From positions 3,038-67,037 of the forward strand of contig JACQLA010000006.1 of the NCBI GenBank assembly GCA_016204255.1: DNA of 64,000 nucleotides, read 5' to 3'. Of this stretch, positions 29,901 through 52,812 are shown in pieces. The notes under the pieces were generated by a model that did no database searches, had not been told where the DNA came from, and saw nothing but the letters and a program-made list of their open reading frames with translations. Origin of the DNA: Candidatus Microgenomates bacterium. GTDB taxonomy: Bacteria; Patescibacteriota; Microgenomatia; JACQLA01. Both the position numbers and the translations under genes were made by a program. Each line of letters begins with the position of its first letter. Position 1 is the stretch's first letter.

Positions 29901-30934
29901 CTTAACCTCAATTCTATCATCTTTGCTTTTTGTTGGTAATCTTGCTCGATCAAATGTAAATCGGTAGCGGTAATAATTGTCTGCTGTTGAGGAATGATAT
30001 CAAAAACATATCGGCGATGCTTATGATCAAGTTCTGAAAATATATCATCCAACAGTAAAATTGGCCGCTCCCCGCATTTGCTGACCATAAATTCCAGCTC
30101 TCCCAATTTCAGCCATAAAACAGCTAAACGCTGTTCTCCTCTTGAGCCGTAAATTGCCAAATTTCGATTTTCAAACTCAAAAGAAAAGTCATCTCTTTGC
30201 GGACCAACTAGAGTCATTCCTGCCGCCACTTCTTCTTCGGCGTATTGAACTAGTCTTGCGGACGACATTAAGCTTTTATCATAAACAATTTTCCGTCCCG
30301 AATCACCATGATTATTTAAAAAATCTATAAACTCTTCTCTTTTTTGGGCCAAAACCGGCCCATTTTCCAAAAGAAGATCATCCCAATAAGCCATTTCCTC
30401 GGGCAAAACCCGCTCCCCTTCTTTTCTTTTAACTAAAAGCTTATTGCGCGTTCTTAGGGCCTTGGTGTAAGTTAAACTTGCTCGCCGGTATTCTTTATCA
30501 ATTTGTTCCAATACCGCATCTAAATAACCGCGGCGCGATGAGGGAGAACCGCCAATAAGTTCTAAGTCCTCGGGACTAAAAACTACCGCTTTTAAATTGC
30601 CAACAAAATCCAATCGCCGCCGGCCAATATTATTTAAAAGAAGTCGTTTTCCGATTACTTTCTCCCCGCCCAATTCACCCCGAGTTAAAGTTATCGCCAG
30701 AATCGCCTCTTCTGTTTTACCGGTTAAATGGGCCGTCTCGCAGAACCAGTTAACCATTTCTTTTTCTTTTTGGGCGCGGAAGCTTTTGGCTGAGGATAAA
30801 AGATAGATTGCCTCTAAAAGATTGGTTTTGCCGGCGGTGTTGGGACCAATAATAAGGTTTATTTCTGGAGAAAAATCAAAATGGGAGTTTTTATAACTGC
30901 GAAAGCCCGCAAGAGTAAGCGTTTTTAAGATCAT
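29897..30934 (-). CDS. recF: DNA replication and repair protein RecF
   Basis: 345 aa. Walker A GPNTAGKTNLLEAI, signature SRGEQR, Walker B LLLDDIFSELD. Confidence 0.85.
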   Translation of the reverse strand: MILKTLTLAGFRSYKNSHFDFSPEINLIIGPNTAGKTNLLEAIYLLSSAKSFRAQKEKEMVNWFCETAHLTGKTEEAILAITLTRGELGGEKVIGKRLLLNNIGRRRLDFVGNLKAVVFSPEDLELIGGSPSSRRGYLDAVLEQIDKEYRRASLTYTKALRTRNKLLVKRKEGERVLPEEMAYWDDLLLENGPVLAQKREEFIDFLNNHGDSGRKIVYDKSLMSSARLVQYAEEEVAAGMTLVGPQRDDFSFEFENRNLAIYGSRGEQRLAVLWLKLGELEFMVSKCGERPILLLDDIFSELDHKHRRYVFDIIPQQQTIITATDLHLIEQDYQQKAKMIELRLR

Positions 30935-31638
30935 TCATCATTATCTTCATTTATGACGGTTCCGATAAACTTCTTTCCCTTAAAAAAACTGTCTAGATTT
31001 TCAAAATTATCGCCTTTTAGAATTATAACCTTCAGTCCAATCTCATGCGCCAATTTTGTTGCCACCGGGTCAAAGGGAACATTTAACCCCGGGTCCCATT
31101 TATCACCAACAATTTGGTGAAAGTAGCGCCAACTCAGTTTCTCAATTGGTTTGGCTTCCGGATGCTTTTTAGGATCTTTTTCATAAACCATCGGTACGTC
31201 CGACATATTAACTAGAGTATTAATCTTATATTCTTTGGCCAAAACTGTAGCAATGTAATCTGTTGACCATCCTGGCTTCCAGCCAGCGGCCACCACCACC
31301 GGCTCGGTAGTAATTTCAACGTCGGAGGGGTCTTTAATGACCCGGATGTGGGCAATATCGCGGAAAATCGTTCGGATCAGATGAGCATTAAGGCGGGTCG
31401 CGTGAATCCCTAACCAGTCAATATCATCCCTGACTAAATTGCCGCCTATTTCTTGAGCGGCATTTTGATAAAAACGGGCAATTGATCCACCGCCAGTGAC
31501 AATAAAAAACCGCCAACCGGCGGTGACTTTTTGACGAATAAATTCATTAAACTTCTTAAGAAATTGAGTATTGATTCCTCCATTAGGGGCAATAAGAGAT
31601 CCTCCCAAAGATAAAACAACTGTTTCTTTTACAGACAT
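30931..31638 (-). CDS. pyrH: archaeal-type UMP kinase (amino-acid-kinase fold)
   Basis: 235 aa. LSLGGSLIAP, IVTGGGSIAR and GWKPGWSTD blocks resemble the short archaeal PyrH type. Confidence 0.7.
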   Translation of the reverse strand: MSVKETVVLSLGGSLIAPNGGINTQFLKKFNEFIRQKVTAGWRFFIVTGGGSIARFYQNAAQEIGGNLVRDDIDWLGIHATRLNAHLIRTIFRDIAHIRVIKDPSDVEITTEPVVVAAGWKPGWSTDYIATVLAKEYKINTLVNMSDVPMVYEKDPKKHPEAKPIEKLSWRYFHQIVGDKWDPGLNVPFDPVATKLAHEIGLKVIILKGDNFENLDSFFKGKKFIGTVINEDNDE

Positions 31639-31839: not shown

Positions 31840-31932
31840 GTCATTTCGAAGGAGCGCTTAGCGACTGAGAAATCTAGCGAAGCGCACTGTCGTGCTAGAT
31901 TTCTCGCCCCGCTAAGCGGGGCTCGAAATGAC
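31840..31932 (+). repeat. nested-hairpin palindromic element, payload-less copy of the GIY-YIG cassette arms
   Basis: Layout: GTCATTTCGA - GGAGCGCTTAGCGACT - GAGAAATCT(AGC) - loop - (GCT)AGATTTCTC - GCCCCGC TAA GCGGGGC - TCGAAATGAC. Same architecture as 50039-50418. Confidence 0.65.
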
Positions 31933-31972: not shown

Positions 31973-32827
31973 TTACCTTTGGCACTTGGGACAGAAAAAG
32001 GTTCCGCGGCCGCCTAGGGAAATTCTTTTAACCACCCCGCCGCAACGATTAAAACAGACTTTACCAGTTTGCGCATAAACGCGGAAATGTTCCTGCATTG
32101 TCCCTTTCCCGCCCAAGGCGTTGACATAGGCGTTTTCGGATGAACCGCCGTATTTTATTCCCTCTTTTAAAACCAAAAGCAAACTTTCATAAAGTTTTTT
32201 AATTTGATCCTCATTAAGTTGATTTGCTAGTTTCTGCGGATGAATCCGGGATAAAAACAGCGCTTCATTGGCGTAAATATTCCCCACCCCGGCAATTTGA
32301 GATTGATCCATCAAAACAAGTTTCACCGGTTTTTTCTTTTTCAAAAGAATGCTTTTAAATTTTTCTAAAGTAAACTCTTTAGTAAACGGCTCGGGACCAA
32401 ACTCGGCCATAACTTTCAGTTTTTCAACTTCGTTAGTTTGAACAACCTTGATATAACCGAATTTCCGTACATCATTATAGAAAAGTTTTGATCCATTATT
32501 GAAGGTAAAAATAACATGAGTAGTACTGGCAGGAAGGGTTGCACCAGCAAAGGGTATTGGGTGACCAAAAGTTGCCAAATCACCATTTTTATGGAAAACC
32601 AGCTGCCCGGTGAGCTTTAAATGAACGATTAAACTTTTCCCGTTATCCAAGTCAAAGATCAAAATCTTGGCCCGGCGACGCAGATCTTTGATCTTTGTTC
32701 CTACAACATCCTTTTTCTCTCCCTGAAAAATCTTTGTTACTCTCACCTCCATATCGTCGATTTTTAAACCGGCGATTTTATTCTGCAAACCTAATCTTAT
32801 GGTTTCAACTTCCGGCAATTCAGGCAT
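31973..32827 (-). CDS. mutM: formamidopyrimidine-DNA glycosylase
   Basis: 284 aa. N-terminal MPELPEVE, H2TH region, C-terminal zinc finger CxxC...CPKCQ. Confidence 0.9.
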   Translation of the reverse strand: MPELPEVETIRLGLQNKIAGLKIDDMEVRVTKIFQGEKKDVVGTKIKDLRRRAKILIFDLDNGKSLIVHLKLTGQLVFHKNGDLATFGHPIPFAGATLPASTTHVIFTFNNGSKLFYNDVRKFGYIKVVQTNEVEKLKVMAEFGPEPFTKEFTLEKFKSILLKKKKPVKLVLMDQSQIAGVGNIYANEALFLSRIHPQKLANQLNEDQIKKLYESLLLVLKEGIKYGGSSENAYVNALGGKGTMQEHFRVYAQTGKVCFNRCGGVVKRISLGGRGTFFCPKCQR

Positions 32828-48388: not shown

Positions 48389-49747
48389 TTAACACTTATA
48401 CTCCGCTGAATTTTCACAGTTTGGACAATGAATTCTTCCGTCTTTAATGACCGCTTTTACTTTCTGATGGCAAAAGGGACACTCACACTCCAGTGTTTTT
48501 TCTGAAGAGTCTAGGGTTTCTGTATGTCTTGGAGTGATAGAATCTGTTAATTTCTTCCCACCACCCCCGGCGCAGCCAGGTAATTCGCTAACATGATCTA
48601 AAACCATTCCGTAAGAAACCGTTGAATCATAATCCAAATCATTTTCCCCCATACCATTTGATTCCTTTACTTTAATTAGCTTCTCCCCTCTTAGAAATTT
48701 AGCAATTTTCAAAATAGTCACAGCCAATGCCTGTTTTACTTCTTTTCTAGACCGCCTACTGGATAAAACATAATCCTCAAACTCTTCTACCATCTTCCCC
48801 GTCTGTTTATTGAATTGCCACAACTCCTCACGTCGATCTAAATCTTTATAAACCTCATCCCAACCGCGGTTTTTGTAGGCAAGATTAGAACCAGTAAGAT
48901 CATGACGGGTTTTTTCCATAACCTTTACCACTTCTCTTATTCCGAATCGCTCTTCAATGGGAATCACTCCAACAATTGATTCAACATAATCACAAACTGA
49001 AGCATCTTTCTCAAGATCAGTTCCTCCAAATGAAAGGCGTTTCAACATCTCCCGGTGCTCATTCTTTTTAAAATCCGTTCGGACAGTAAAACCAAAAACA
49101 TCGTCTCCTTTTTTTTGCCAAATATGAGTCTGGGAGTCGGGATAATTGATTAGTTCCCCATCGGTCCCTCTCATTCCGGTCCAACCATCGGGGCTAGTCA
49201 TAATCCAAACAGAATTATCGGGTTGGGAAATTAAAGCCGGCTCCACTTTTTCTTCAAGCGCTCTTTTAACCGAACCGTTTCTTTCTTCTGCAGAAACCGT
49301 ATCCACAACCAATTTATCGTAAAGAGGATCGACTAACCGCTTTCTCCCATTTACCAATTGAATTTTGTAATGGATTGGAAAAACTAAACCCTCAGCTAAA
49401 TATTCCAGGATAAAACCTTTAATATCGGTCTCCGTTCTTACCAAAGCCTTTTTCATTTTTTCCCGGCGTTGATCCTCACCGTCAGTTTTTTTTATATCTG
49501 AAAAAATTAATTTAATCTGGGTTTCGTTTTGGAACCCGGTTCCAGGAAGCTCATCCCAGTTATAAGGTAAACCTTCCTTGCGCCAATTTTTGCGGAAATA
49601 GTCGATCTCATGATCTAAGGGATTTTTATAAATTTCCTCTGCTTCAACCGAAGAAGTAACCGGTCTTGTAGCTCCATCTTTGGAACCATTAGGAATTCTT
49701 GTTGCTTGTTTTGAATAATCAGTTCTTTCTAAAAGAACGGGAGACAC
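48389..49747 (-). CDS. orphan protein with C-terminal 4-Cys zinc ribbon, riboswitch-controlled
   Basis: The ORF-track start is the ATG at 49771, but the strong SD GAGGAGG (49761-49755) lies downstream of it and 7 nt upstream of the GTG at 49747. Ends in CECPFC-x14-CPNC. No TM segment or known domain recognised. Confidence 0.55.
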   Translation of the reverse strand: MSPVLLERTDYSKQATRIPNGSKDGATRPVTSSVEAEEIYKNPLDHEIDYFRKNWRKEGLPYNWDELPGTGFQNETQIKLIFSDIKKTDGEDQRREKMKKALVRTETDIKGFILEYLAEGLVFPIHYKIQLVNGRKRLVDPLYDKLVVDTVSAEERNGSVKRALEEKVEPALISQPDNSVWIMTSPDGWTGMRGTDGELINYPDSQTHIWQKKGDDVFGFTVRTDFKKNEHREMLKRLSFGGTDLEKDASVCDYVESIVGVIPIEERFGIREVVKVMEKTRHDLTGSNLAYKNRGWDEVYKDLDRREELWQFNKQTGKMVEEFEDYVLSSRRSRKEVKQALAVTILKIAKFLRGEKLIKVKESNGMGENDLDYDSTVSYGMVLDHVSELPGCAGGGGKKLTDSITPRHTETLDSSEKTLECECPFCHQKVKAVIKDGRIHCPNCENSAEYKC

Positions 49748-49831
49748 TAAAAAACCTCCTCTTTGTCTCATCGAGAAGCGAGAAGGTTAAAAGTCCACAA
49801 AAAAACTTTTCACTTGCTCGAGAGACTTTAA

Positions 49832-49956
49832 CCTTAAGGATGGTTCCGGGCTTTCCGTCGTCTGGCGGATTTACCGTTGCGGCACAGCCTCCGATTTCCT
49901 CGCCTCGCCGAAGACTTTGGCGAAGGCGGGTCACGGAGTTCCCATAAACCTCAAGG
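49832..49956 (-). promoter_or_regulatory. candidate cobalamin riboswitch aptamer (expression platform extends to about 49748)
   Basis: Minus strand, in order: CCUUGAGG..AUGGGAA-CUCCG-UGAC[GC hairpin]AGGAAAU-CGGAG-GCUGUGCCGCAACGGUAAA-UCCG CCAGACGA CGGA-AAGCCCGGAACCAUCC-UUAAGG. The order and content resemble the cobalamin riboswitch core and B12 box as I recall them. Not verified with a covariance model. Confidence 0.6.
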
Positions 49957-49974
49957 ATATTTAAATTTAAATAA

Positions 49975-50003
49975 ATACTAAAGCTTCTATCCTATTTCGT
50001 CAA
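49975..50003 (-). promoter_or_regulatory. promoter TTGACG-17-TAGTAT upstream of the riboswitch leader
   Basis: On the minus strand the -35 is at 50003-49998 and the -10 at 49980-49975. Confidence 0.4.
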
Positions 50004-50038
50004 GATGGTAATAATACTTCCTGAGTTAACAAAGAATC

Positions 50039-50418
50039 GTCATTGCGATCCTCCGATTTAATCGGGGGAGAAGCAATCATGATAGGAATATTAAATTATC
50101 TGCGGGTATAAATCTTCAAATTCGGGATTAGTTTTCTCTATTAACCTTAATTTTTTATCTCTTGATCCTGCCTTAATTTGTTTTTCCCTTTTAATAGCCT
50201 CGCAAATATCATTAAAGATCTCATAATAAACAAGCTTGTTTAAGTGGTATTTTGCAGAAAATCCCTTTATCAATTTATTCTTGTGCTGATAAATCCGTTT
50301 CACTAAATCATTTGTAACGCCAACGTAAAGAACTCTATTAGTTATATTGGTTAATATATAAACATAGGAGTGTATAGCCATCACAAGATTGCTTCGTCGC
50401 TACGCTCCTCGCAATGAC
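50039..50418 (-). mobile_element. GIY-YIG gene cassette bounded by nested inverted repeats (putative small mobile/selfish element)
   Basis: Outer arms GTCATTGCGA (50039-48) and TCGCAATGAC (50409-18). Inner arms GAAGCAATC (50070-78) and GATTGCTTC (50387-95). All are perfect inverted repeats, and the ORF occupies the loop. Confidence 0.45.
50091..50384 (-). CDS. GIY-YIG nuclease-family protein (COG2827/URI type)
   Basis: 97 aa. YVYILTNITNRVLYVGVTNDLVKRIYQH is the GIY-x10-YIG module, with a downstream conserved Arg and Glu (REKQIK). Confidence 0.85.
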   Translation of the reverse strand: MMAIHSYVYILTNITNRVLYVGVTNDLVKRIYQHKNKLIKGFSAKYHLNKLVYYEIFNDICEAIKREKQIKAGSRDKKLRLIEKTNPEFEDLYPQII

Positions 50419-50437
50419 GCAGATAGTGCAAAAATCT

Positions 50438-50956
50438 TCACGGCCAGATTTTTTCTTCAAAACCTTCATTTTTATTAACCCAACGAGCTAAGGCAAATAA
50501 AAAATCGGAGAGGCGATTGAGATAGATAATTATTTCCGGGGCGATTTTTTCTTTTTGGGATAGAATTACAGCCTCTCTTTCGGCTCGGCGGCAGATCGAT
50601 CTTGAGAAGTGAAGCAAACTGCCCACCTTTCCGCCCTGAGGTAAAATAAAATTAACCAGAGGCGGTAAATCTTCCCAGATTTGATCGATTTCCTTTTCTA
50701 AAATTATCACCCGCTGTTCTAATTTCCCACCGACATTTCTATCTCCCAAGGCAATCTCTGAGCCGATTTCCATCAGATCTTCCTGAATTTCAGATAGAAT
50801 TTTTAGCTCGGAGGAAAAGGCAAGAACTACACCCAGACTGCTGCTTAGTTCATCCAAAACACCTAAAACAACGAGTCGAGGATGATTTTTCTCCACCTCC
50901 ATCCCGCAAACTGTCGTTTTCCCCTTATCTCCTTTTTTGGTATAAATTTTTGTCAT
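50438..50956 (-). CDS. pduO: ATP:cob(I)alamin adenosyltransferase, PduO type
   Basis: 172 aa. N-terminal IYTKKGDKGKTT and the helical bundle typical of the PduO/MMAB family. Confidence 0.9.
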   Translation of the reverse strand: MTKIYTKKGDKGKTTVCGMEVEKNHPRLVVLGVLDELSSSLGVVLAFSSELKILSEIQEDLMEIGSEIALGDRNVGGKLEQRVIILEKEIDQIWEDLPPLVNFILPQGGKVGSLLHFSRSICRRAEREAVILSQKEKIAPEIIIYLNRLSDFLFALARWVNKNEGFEEKIWP

Positions 50957-52812
50957 GATTTACAATAAGAGTATCCGCAATTTGGGCAGGTAAAGCAACC
51001 CTCTTTTTCCTCCATTTCCCCGCCGCATTCCGGACAAATCCCCCGCTCCTCCTCCACGATCTTTCGGCCATTTAAGGCGCCGACTGATAAAACTTGTTCT
51101 TTTCGACTTTTATCACGGTAAATGGTAATTCCCTTGCAGTTCGTTCTCCAAGCCAAAAGAAAAGCCTGTTTAACATCGTCAACAGTTGCCGAGGAAGGAA
51201 AATTAATAGTCTTAGAAACGGAGTTATCACAGTATTTTTGGCAGGCCGCCTGCATTTTAACATGATACTTCCAGGAAATATCATGTGCGGTAACAAAAAT
51301 GCGCTTAAACTCAGCCGGCAATTCTTTAACATTTTTAACCGTTCCTTCCTGGGCCACCTGCTCTAAAACCTTTTCCTTATTAATACTTCTTAAACCACTT
51401 AAGGCCTCTTCAAAAACCGAATCGACAATGGTCAAAGTCTGGCCACCTTTTTTATTGCGGGTTTCTTCAAAAAGCACCTGGCGTCGGGTCACCAAAGAAA
51501 AAACCGGTTCAATGCCTGAAGAGGTAGAAGCTAACATGGAAATGGTACCAGTCGGAGCGATGGTTAACATAGTTGCATTCCTTAATTGAGACCCATCTTT
51601 ATGGATTGATATGTCAAAATTAGGAAATACTCCTCGCTCTTTGGCTAAATTTGTCGAGGCCTGGCGGGCTTCCTTTTGGATAAAAGCCATTATTTTTTCT
51701 AAAAGTTTGACGGCTTCCTCCGAATCATAAGGAAGACCCATTTTATAAAGCAGATGGGCAAATCCCATAATCCCCAAGCCTATTTTGCGATTGCCGAATT
51801 TGACTATTTTTTCAATCTTTTCCAGGGGAAAAAGATTAACATCAATCATATTGTCCAGAAAATGGACGGTTATATGCACAGTTTTGCGTAATTTCGGCCA
51901 ATCAATTGTTTTTCCTTTTAAGTGGGTTGAAAGAATAATTGATCCCAAATTACAGGATTCATAAGGCAGAAGAGGCTGCTCGCCGCAAGGATTGGTAGCA
52001 TCCAAACGGCCCAAGGTCGGAGTGGGATTATCTTTTTCTAAGCGGTCCAAAAAAACCACGCCCGGATCAGCCGCTTCGTGGGCTTTTTTGGCAATAAGAT
52101 CAAGAATTTTGCGTGCCGAAATCTTTTGAACCACTTCCCCATTGCGGGGATTAATCAACTGCCAGCCCTTCCCTTTCTCCGCTGCCTCCATAAATTCATC
52201 TGTTACCCCCACTGAAATATTAAAATTTCTAATAACGCCGTCCTCACCTTTAAGATCTATGAAATCTAAGATATCGGGGTGATCACAATTTAAAATCGCC
52301 ATATTTCCTCCATGGCGCTTTGAACCTTGCAAAATCGCACCCAATGCACCATCATAAGCTCTTAAAAAATCAACCGGACCGGAGGCGGCTTCAGGAACAT
52401 TTTTGACCCGGTCGCCATGGGGGCGGATTTTGGAAAAGTTAAAACCCGTTCCCCCGTTATTTTTTTGAATTACGGCGGCTTCTCCCAAGGTGCCAAAGAT
52501 TGAGGCAATATTGTCTTCAATTGGTAACACAAAGCAAGAGGAGAGTTGCCCCAGACCATCGTTCCCCGCTTCAAAAAGAGCCCGGCCGGCAGGTAGAAAT
52601 AGAAGATTAATCATCAACTCGTAAAACTGACGAGCGGTTTTCTCCAGATTTAAATTATCGTAGACAGCATCTGCTTTGGCGACAGCTTTGGAAACGCGCC
52701 AAAACATTTCCCCGGGCGTCTCACACGGTTTACCTTTATGATCAAGTCGCAAATAGCGTTTTTGAACGATTTTTTGCGCATGAGAAGAAAGTTTTGGTTC
52801 AATTATTTTCAT
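50953..52812 (-). CDS. nrdJ: adenosylcobalamin-dependent (class II) ribonucleotide reductase, short paralog
   Basis: 619 aa. SSCFVLP, thiyl-radical loop NPCGEQPL, ESCNLGSI, and a C-terminal CPEC...CPNC ribbon. Confidence 0.9.
   Translation of the reverse strand: MKIIEPKLSSHAQKIVQKRYLRLDHKGKPCETPGEMFWRVSKAVAKADAVYDNLNLEKTARQFYELMINLLFLPAGRALFEAGNDGLGQLSSCFVLPIEDNIASIFGTLGEAAVIQKNNGGTGFNFSKIRPHGDRVKNVPEAASGPVDFLRAYDGALGAILQGSKRHGGNMAILNCDHPDILDFIDLKGEDGVIRNFNISVGVTDEFMEAAEKGKGWQLINPRNGEVVQKISARKILDLIAKKAHEAADPGVVFLDRLEKDNPTPTLGRLDATNPCGEQPLLPYESCNLGSIILSTHLKGKTIDWPKLRKTVHITVHFLDNMIDVNLFPLEKIEKIVKFGNRKIGLGIMGFAHLLYKMGLPYDSEEAVKLLEKIMAFIQKEARQASTNLAKERGVFPNFDISIHKDGSQLRNATMLTIAPTGTISMLASTSSGIEPVFSLVTRRQVLFEETRNKKGGQTLTIVDSVFEEALSGLRSINKEKVLEQVAQEGTVKNVKELPAEFKRIFVTAHDISWKYHVKMQAACQKYCDNSVSKTINFPSSATVDDVKQAFLLAWRTNCKGITIYRDKSRKEQVLSVGALNGRKIVEEERGICPECGGEMEEKEGCFTCPNCGYSYCKS

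Follow-up and report, generated by a model that had tools for sequence, protein, structure and literature searches.

Ssn systems and CGTC-tagged repeats

Ssn proteins are a family of site-specific endonucleases that act on single-stranded DNA (ssDNA), as described by Chenal et al. (2025, Nat Commun 16:2388, PMC11893778). The subject here is a locus found within a 64-kb stretch of DNA from a Candidatus Microgenomates bacterium, with this entire analyzed stretch referred to as 'the window'. At that locus a gene for a small GIY-YIG endonuclease is located between two hairpin repeats, the gene and repeats together being described here as a cassette. As judged from sequence comparison, this cassette very probably is a member of the Ssn systems, that is, a nuclease gene, ssn, positioned between its cognate hairpin repeats (Ssn-related motifs, or SRMs), with those repeats belonging to a larger superfamily of CGTC-tagged repetitive extragenic palindromes (REPs).

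The SsnA protein of Neisseria meningitidis is 94 amino acids (aa) long, consists of a single GIY-YIG domain (CDD family cd10448), and binds the NTS hairpin repeat (CGTCATTCCCGCGMAVGCGGGAATCYRG) solely as ssDNA. Cleavage falls on the 5' side of the repeat, a few nucleotides away, with duplex DNA, RNA, and the reverse strand all left uncut. Binding depends most on the C found right after the palindrome and cleavage most on the three bases preceding the palindrome, with cutting abolished in Y6A, Y17A, and E64A mutants (PMC11893778). The gene is arranged as NTS-ssnA-NTS, and hairpin repeats of 20-50 nt, i.e., SRMs, flank most homologues, a nearby repeat having been reported for 71% of homologue loci. 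Knockout as well as repeat-mutation data indicate that SsnA modulates natural transformation, and the authors themselves note a likeness of Ssn both to insertion sequences (ISs) and to REPs in combination with REP-associated tyrosine transposases (RAYTs) (PMC11893778).

CGTC-tagged REPs, in turn, possess an unpaired CGTC or TGTC 'head' along with a stem that starts with AT, and are found mostly as inverted dimers (Di Nocera et al. 2013, BMC Genomics 14:522, PMC3733652). Included among them are the Neisseria dRS3 and the Rickettsia RPE-4 and RPE-6 repeats, and they have, as those authors stressed, no dedicated transposase. It is this head which supplied the lead to the literature, as searching by arm sequence or by nuclease family name had returned nothing useful. 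Di Nocera et al. were found by way of the CGTC head, and Chenal et al. by way of GIY-YIG in combination with CGTC. The preliminary description of the locus treated its architecture as one lacking a described mechanism, but the NTS-ssnA-NTS arrangement had already been published (PMC11893778). The window locus belongs, that is, to a kind described in 2025 rather than being a new kind.

The cassette

The cassette consists of the following three features:

50038..50078, + strand: downstream Ssn-related hairpin repeat, CGTC-ATTGC-GA-TCCTCCGAT-TTA-ATCGGGGGA-GAA-GCAAT-C, an exact pattern match

50091..50381, - strand: ssn gene, encoding a 96-aa single-domain GIY-YIG nuclease (PF01541), with the stop codon (50091-50093) included

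50387..50419, - strand: upstream Ssn-related hairpin repeat, CGTC-ATTGC-GAG-GAGCGTAGCGAC-GAA-GCAAT-C, an exact pattern match

This combination of gene and repeats is a real feature and was correctly seen as such from the start. The outer arms are as had been described, i.e., GTCATTGCGA at 50039-50048 matching TCGCAATGAC at 50409-50418 perfectly, and indeed they can be extended to 11 nt (CGTCATTGCGA at 50038-50048 and TCGCAATGACG at 50409-50419). The inner arms, GAAGCAATC at 50070-50078 and GATTGCTTC at 50387-50395, likewise are perfect. The pattern GTCATTGCGA-N(5-35)-GAAGCAATC matches exactly twice within the 64 kb, once per strand and both times at the cassette, and matches not at all in 100 dinucleotide-preserving shuffles.

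While the arms thus exist, they are not the two independent layers of inverted repeat which had been proposed, as an outer and an inner arm are instead the two ends of one unit. This is a single unit of 32-40 nt, (C)GTC-ATTGC-GA-[variable]-GAA-GCAAT-C, present as one copy to each side of the gene, with the copies mutually inverted and with ATTGC able to pair locally with GCAAT inside of each. Both of the GTC ends, or 'heads', face away from the ssn gene, an orientation referred to here as heads-out. The downstream unit contains the apical hairpin that had been noted as a 9-bp GC stem, TCCTCCGAT/ATCGGGGGA, and all 9 bp are present, though one pair is a G·T wobble on the + strand and, on the - strand, mismatched C·A. 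As + strand ssDNA this unit folds with -9.6 kcal/mol (z=-3.0). Spacing was also as first described: the inner arm or tail of the downstream unit lies 12 nt past the ssn stop codon, while the tail C of the upstream unit is found 5 nt before the ssn ATG and 2 nt from a GTG. The heads-out spacer, i.e., the distance between the two units, is 308 nt, and the cassette totals 382 nt.

The nuclease

The gene had initially been presented as a 97-aa open reading frame starting with the GTG at 50384. That GTG is not the start. The true start almost certainly is instead the ATG at 50381, giving 96 aa (MAIHSYVYIL…), a product which is in register with its homologues and 100% identical to an NCBI entry, 'GIY-YIG nuclease family protein [Candidatus Microgenomates bacterium]' (P0001). 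Pfam returns the GIY-YIG domain over residues 6-78 (PF01541, E=1.2e-16) and no other domain. The predicted catalytic residues of the window protein, Y8, Y19, and E66, do not vary among 19 homologues (alignment A1), and R29 is nearly invariant as well. The spacing of the catalytic three, 11 and 47 residues, is also that of Y6, Y17, and E64 of SsnA.

The window protein and a 94-aa protein from Neisseria gonorrhoeae (L094, 1489-1773) are 49% identical over 90 residues, in a gapless alignment (E=9e-31). The gonococcal protein possesses Y6, Y17, and E64 exactly where these were mutated in the Ssn paper, and its gene is ringed by canonical NTS repeats, CGTCATTCCCGCG…GGGAATC. It is taken here as the presumptive orthologue of N. 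meningitidis SsnA. The gonococcal sequence was recovered, as an aside, from PLSDB records NZ_CP119140.1 and NZ_CP119142.1, which are two 2.17-Mb N. gonorrhoeae chromosomes filed as plasmids, and further multi-megabase PLSDB 'plasmid' records look alike (Aeromonas caviae, 4.9 Mb; Shinella, 4.6 Mb).

Searches against PDB, NCBIfam, and PADLOC yielded marginal, generic GIY-YIG matches only, and no defense-system assignment. A second ssn gene was sought across the 64-kb window and none was found, leaving a single gene copy.

Conservation of the repeats with the gene

The nuclease belongs to a very large protein family, 7,959 out of 8,000 scored candidates having E ≤ 0.001. At least 591 relatives were obtained upon scanning a single genome for each species, and of these the best 80 loci (L001-L080, of 52-73% identity) were kept. 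These come from the Candidate Phyla Radiation (CPR), Cyanobacteria, Omnitrophota, Dehalococcoidia, Gamma- and Alphaproteobacteria (including Rickettsia), Bacteroidota, Nitrospirota, Elusimicrobiota, and others. The homologues recurrently are flanked by GTCATTGCGAG…GAAGCAATC a few to tens of nucleotides prior to the start codon, with upstream units found approximately 1-46 nt from the start, and by GATTGC…CTCGCAATGAC directly following the stop.

With a generic unit detector (GTC, then a 5-nt stem start, then the reverse complement of that stem start, then C), at least one adjacent heads-out unit is found for 52 of the 60 homologue genes that have complete flanks, and such units are found on both sides for 30 of those 60. 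Heads-out appears to be the usual layout, and it is seen also with different stems, i.e., in Rhizobium (ATCCCAGGG), Aeromonas (ATTCCCGCG), and Sphingobium. The preliminary description had viewed the nuclease and its structured ends as one unit, and had considered that the arms might turn out to occur here only, unaccompanied by GIY-YIG homologues elsewhere. They clearly are not so restricted, and the one-unit view is upheld. Particularly, as the arms accompany homologues across CPR, Cyanobacteria, Omnitrophota, Dehalococcoidia, Proteobacteria, Bacteroidota, and other phyla, they are a family trait rather than ordinary untranslated-region sequence.

Two of the surveyed loci are unusual in their arrangement. 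In one, from an uncultured bacterium (L003, 3001-3294 and 3427-3720), two ssn cassettes with identical flanking repeats are found in tandem, approximately 130 nt apart, which is a local duplication of the whole cassette. In the other, a pyrC-ssn-pgi locus (L108, ~2470-2530), the host gene upstream terminates within the upstream repeat, whose tail in turn overlaps with the start of ssn. The cassette there is wedged in with almost no spacer, so that repeat sequence is translated as the carboxyl terminus of a host protein.

The ATTGC subtype and a candidate specificity loop

Across 425 kb of sequence surrounding the homologues there are 250 ATTGC-type units, of which 205 are distinct, with the consensus (T/C)GTCATTGCGAG … (C)GAAGCAATC(T). 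The units are 24-89 nt long (median 36), and the middle is variable although usually a hairpin. The predicted ssDNA fold closes the base via ATT/AAT pairing in 146 of the 205 distinct units, and the base preceding the GTC is T in 59% of these 205. The ATTGC subtype, that is, consists of a conserved base, GTC-ATTGC-GAG…GAA-GCAAT-C, along with an apical hairpin that is free in both sequence and length. As the published SRM motif is nearly silent among these loci (see below), yet 250 ATTGC units are present, the window carries a distinct subtype.

The residues that follow a conserved EKQIK in the protein track the stem of the adjacent repeats (L001-L080 and L094-L104), as follows:

Loop [AGS]GSR: stem ATTGC in nearly all adjacent units, with a few exceptions ATTAC

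Loop GW[LVT]R: stem ATTCT or ATCCT

Loop KWRR (L075): stem ATTTC

Loop KWNR or KWRR (proteobacterial): stem ATTCC or ATCCC

This post-EKQIK loop therefore may be a specificity determinant, though as a candidate it should be viewed as a lead and not as a result, the co-variation being based upon few W-type loops and upon loci which are not phylogenetically independent, with no correction made for phylogeny.

A different argument, from folding, was dropped. The forward strand of whole units folds better than the reverse in 162 of 181 cases, but upon removal of the constant ends this bias is gone (40 vs 58, p=0.46; G·T pairs 10 vs 9). The bias stems, that is, from the conserved ends, and so cannot serve as separate support for a function in single-stranded form.

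Predicted cleavage and the strength of the identification

By analogy with SsnA, the window protein would bind one repeat once the DNA has become single-stranded and the repeat has folded as a hairpin. It would read the palindrome, the C just 3' of that palindrome, and the GTC head just 5', and would then cut that same strand approximately 3 nt 5' of the CGTC, with duplex DNA, RNA, and the complementary strand remaining uncut. On the + strand the cut is predicted near 50034/50035, and on the - strand near 50422/50423. As both heads point outward, these predicted cuts would bracket the whole cassette, though on opposite strands.

Several observations weigh against assignment of the locus to the Ssn systems. 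The published SRM motif, HGTCWYN(0-2)YYVSBRHN(0-5)WNVSBRGN(0-2)RNCYNB, finds the NTS control but matches nowhere in the window and just 8 times in L001-L080, though that motif is a search tool rather than a definition of the family, and the plan of head, palindrome, and C is retained in the window unit. Only two cognate ATTGC units are visible in the 64 kb, and a family dispersed within this genome thus is not shown. The upstream unit on its own folds weakly (z=+0.7 to +1.0). At the gonococcal locus the units nearest to the gene point heads-in, among many other copies, so that orientation is not universal. In addition, ssDNA cleavage at ATTGC-type repeats is a predicted activity, one extended by homology from N. 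meningitidis SsnA.

Genomic setting

The cassette had been placed between a pduO/nrdJ operon and a riboswitch promoter, and this holds: upstream, on the - strand, are a gene for PduO (PduO-type cobalamin adenosyltransferase) and genes for two class II ribonucleotide reductases (RNRs), while downstream are a riboswitch and a promoter-like site. The neighboring features are these:

49821-49968, - strand: cobalamin riboswitch (33.2 bits vs a gathering score of 31.5)

50003-49975, - strand: promoter-like site

50953-52812, - strand: class II-type RNR paralogue, 619 aa

52957-55158, - strand: class II-type RNR paralogue, 733 aa, with a TSCPD domain

The riboswitch was seen in a sensitive Rfam scan of 49600-50600 and was missed by a whole-window gathering scan. 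Relative to three relatives (alignment A2) it has an extra stretch of approximately 33 nt (ACCCGCCTTCGCCAAAGTCTTCGGCGAGGCGAGG). It precedes a gene of 452/460 aa without a Pfam match, and the relatives have at the corresponding position a gene of 389-434 aa which also lacks Pfam matches.

The RNR-RNR-pduO order is kept in relatives (L089-L093), with the closest available PduO relatives being 65-74% identical. Comparison of synteny, as had been recommended, reveals the same intergenic site without a cassette in three of these relatives (L089, L090, L093). All three keep RNR-RNR-pduO-(riboswitch)-gene with no ssn in between, L093 having in addition an extra NUDIX gene. In an alignment anchored on the end of pduO, the TTGACA promoter box, and the riboswitch, the cassette forms one block which is present in the window only. 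The spacer between pduO and the next gene is 690 nt in the window genome, and this, minus the 382-nt cassette, is 308 nt, as compared with 312 nt in L089 and 279 nt in L090. The comparison supports insertion of the cassette into the pduO-riboswitch spacer, with repeated loss the less parsimonious alternative, though the window and its relatives are too diverged for the cassette junctions to be fixed.

Logan short-read contigs from the window organism (L082-L085, L087, L088) begin or end inside of the upstream 32-nt repeat. GIY-YIG contigs, that is, have their first base 33-35 nt ahead of the ATG, and pduO contigs extend to 49 nt past the stop. Such breakage within the upstream unit suggests that its 31-mers recur elsewhere in those metagenomes.

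A gene-less doublet

Besides the two ATTGC units flanking the gene, the 64 kb contains one additional pair of repeat units, which is a heads-out doublet of ATTTC type:

31840..31874, + strand: left unit of the gene-less heads-out doublet, GTC-ATTTC-GA…GAG-GAAAT-C

31875..31897, no strand: spacer of 23 nt, whose ends, TAGC…GCTA, lengthen the inner palindrome to 12 bp

31898..31932, - strand: right unit of the gene-less doublet, GTC-ATTTC-GA-GCCCCGC-TTA-GCGGGGC-GAG-GAAAT-C

The doublet as a whole folds as ssDNA with -31 kcal/mol (z=-7). It is found between a gene for Fpg (31973-32827, - strand) and a gene of the amino-acid-kinase family (30931-31638, - strand). ATTTC/GAAAT is a compensatory variant of ATTGC/GCAAT, i.e., with G changed to T on one side and C to A on the other. 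The ATTTC subtype also flanks the Ssn homologue of L075, which has a KWRR loop, and is not the type that is paired with the AGSR loop of the window protein. As there is no second ssn gene within the window, the doublet is an orphan here.

Heads-out spacers in general are bimodal in length, being 4-92 nt for gene-less doublets (of which there are 55) vs mostly about 300-330 nt where a gene is present. The two spacers of the window, 23 and 308 nt, fit the short and the long mode, respectively.

What the cassette might be for

Describing the locus as an Ssn system says little about the purpose of the nuclease, and it is there that explanations diverge. The preliminary description suggested a compact selfish unit. 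What has held up is that nuclease and ends are a conserved unit, while selfish mobility is plausible but unproven. One explanation, compatible with the Ssn identification but adding a claim concerning the nuclease's purpose, is that the cassette is an autonomous mobile element, with Ssn serving as the transposase-like nuclease of a system resembling that of RAYTs and their REP doublets (REPINs), and with ssDNA intermediates. We view this as quite possible though not as the expectation. [quoted passage not shown] In addition, the upstream host gene of L108 ends within a unit, many loci are found at contig ends, with Logan contigs breaking in an arm, and the Ssn authors raised the same analogy (PMC11893778). 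On the other hand, transposition has been shown for no Ssn, an abutting direct repeat, i.e., a target-site duplication, is absent from 85 of 99 heads-out pairs, including both pairs of the window, and the window has a single gene copy. Two widely sampled homologues also are stable in context, with identical proteins P0079 and P0058 each found in one conserved context across 23-24 contigs, these contexts being pyrC-ssn-pgi and a type IV pilus cluster in Daviesbacteria. Among 2.9 million viral contigs, only 3 relatives were found. A heads-out arrangement supplies, furthermore, just one forward-reading, cleavable repeat per strand, so that one-strand excision, as with IS200/IS605, is not predicted. 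By analogy, the overall profile looks more like that of a single-copy RAYT with REPINs than like that of an active insertion sequence. A still more specific version of mobility is speculative, and we would not presently bet upon it: Ssn cassettes might form a second, autonomous, GIY-YIG-driven class of REPIN-like elements moving via ssDNA, with heads-out doublets such as 31840-31932 as their non-autonomous derivatives and with ATTGC as a pan-phylum lineage for which the loop (K-[AGS]-G-S-R vs K-W-N/R-R or G-W-x-R) sets stem recognition.

Alternatively, Ssn could be a domesticated host function, trimming incoming or replicative ssDNA at repeats and thereby modulating natural transformation, with the gene-flanking repeats then being leftovers or autoregulatory sites. 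For the window this seems doubtful, if not strongly so. The transformation data for N. meningitidis, from both knockout and repeat mutation, speak in its favor (PMC11893778), as do genes which are single-copy and stable in context. The Daviesbacteria gene is found, in addition, inside of a type IV pilus cluster, pilC-pilin-pilD-ssn-pilins, and this setting, with pilC-like, pilin, and prepilin peptidase genes, then ssn, then several pilins, is that of P0058 in all of the samples (L111-L120, Candidatus Daviesbacteria plus related metagenome contigs). Type IV pili of this sort serve DNA uptake. The pilus context thus fits the DNA-uptake link proposed for Neisseria. A host role is harder to square with there being just four units in 64 kb, hence few genomic targets here, or with absence of the gene from close relatives, which makes it dispensable, and at the window locus a link with competence genes is not seen.

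It had been suggested as well that the arms could zip together the 5' and 3' ends of the mRNA, or of ssDNA. An element functioning at the level of RNA, whether by pairing the ends of ssn mRNA or as a terminator or stabilizer, now appears improbable. The minimum-energy fold of the 398-nt strand does use long-range outer and inner pairing, and the downstream unit is a stable hairpin located directly past the stop, but the whole-cassette fold is only marginally better than that of shuffles (z=-1.8, 4/100) and the two arms have variable middles which lack mutual complementarity. There is neither a T-run terminator nor a promoter-like site within the arms, and Rfam provides no match within them, the whole-window gathering scan and the sensitive scan of 49600-50600 finding only tRNAs and the cobalamin riboswitch. 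Units also occur as gene-less doublets and singletons, and SsnA, which binds a single ssDNA hairpin, does not interact with RNA (PMC11893778). End-zipping accordingly was not sustained.

Least credible of all, to the point of being negligible, is that the gene is a free-standing GIY-YIG homing endonuclease, or else an ordinary repair nuclease (UPF0213/YhbQ or Slx1-like) around which inverted repeats happen to lie by chance. There are weak matches to the I-TevI catalytic domain, to group I intron endonuclease models, to UPF0213 BH0048, and to Slx1, but these are far below family cut-offs (22 bits vs 56 for TIGR01453; E=0.044 for 1ZG2, the UPF0213 representative, cd10456). The 96-aa protein is without a DNA-binding domain and is encoded in a chromosomal intergenic spacer, a setting that is neither intron nor phage. 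The 0 of 100 shuffles exclude chance, and the arms are conserved with the gene across phyla. These together with the 49% identity to the presumptive SsnA orthologue effectively refute explanations of this sort, and identification of the locus as an Ssn system is retained.

Significance

The description of the Ssn family dates only to 2025, and biochemical tests of it have been confined to Neisseria and Wolbachia. Its gene-between-repeats layout is now seen to reach CPR bacteria and many other phyla. As the published motif misses the ATTGC subtype, the reported 71% of repeat-linked loci may be an underestimate. The candidate specificity loop is potentially useful for the engineering of ssDNA cutters, while the one occupied vs three empty sites, along with the two heads-out size classes, bear on cassette mobility. 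For the window itself, what is seen is ordinary, i.e., one accessory gene inserted into an intergenic spacer, and the added value is modest, consisting of the CPR host, the bipartite ATTGC repeat, the candidate loop, and the occupied vs empty sites.

Comparison with known systems

The more distant resemblances are of fold or of ends. With UPF0213/YhbQ and Slx1 the locus has in common the GIY-YIG catalytic fold, with marginal sequence matches. Homing endonucleases such as I-TevI and Seg also possess this fold but have large DNA-binding domains, cut duplex DNA, and reside in introns or phages. Inverted ends are shared with classical ISs and MITEs, while the target-site duplication is absent from the window pairs. 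IS200/IS605 elements are closer in that their subterminal hairpins are recognized as ssDNA and no target-site duplication is produced. They differ, however, in using an HUH transposase and in making both cuts on the same strand, whereas the forward-reading repeats of the window are on opposite strands.

REPtrons, that is, REPs and REPINs along with their RAYT (TnpA-REP), have a single-copy nuclease gene flanked by inverted, recognized hairpins, dispersed gene-less inverted doublets, no target-site duplication, and presumed recognition of folded ssDNA, all of which resemble what is described here. RAYTs, however, are HUH/Y1 enzymes which form covalent intermediates and can rejoin DNA, in contrast to Ssn, which is a hydrolytic GIY-YIG enzyme with no known strand transfer. 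The REP head, furthermore, is GTAG rather than the CGTC of the window, so that it is the layout alone which is analogous.

CGTC-tagged REPs share with the window units the unpaired CGTC or TGTC head, the stem starting with AT, the short tail, and frequent inverted dimers. They are mostly proteobacterial and possess uninterrupted 8-9-bp stems with 4-5-nt loops, unlike the bipartite window unit with its 5-bp basal stem, internal loop, and variable apical hairpin. Heads-out dimers are the commonest in the loci examined vs a predominance of head-to-head dimers there (PMC3733652), as far as the two naming conventions correspond. Ssn fills the dedicated-transposase gap that was reported for these repeats.

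From the Ssn system of Neisseria, lastly, the window locus differs in its stem, being ATTGC/GCAAT with a conserved GAG…GAA internal loop and variable apical hairpin vs a ATTCCCGC stem of 8-9 bp closed by a loop of 4-5 nt. It differs also in the loop following EKQIK (AGSR vs KWNR), in being found in a CPR (Microgenomates) host with few repeats visible vs hundreds in Neisseria, and in having gene-nearest units that are heads-out vs heads-in at the gonococcal locus. What the two have in common is a single-domain GIY-YIG protein of approximately 95 aa with catalytic Y, Y, and E at equal spacing, a gene located between inverted hairpin repeats which consist of an HGTC head, a palindrome AT…AT, and then C, and the occurrence elsewhere of gene-less copies of those repeats.

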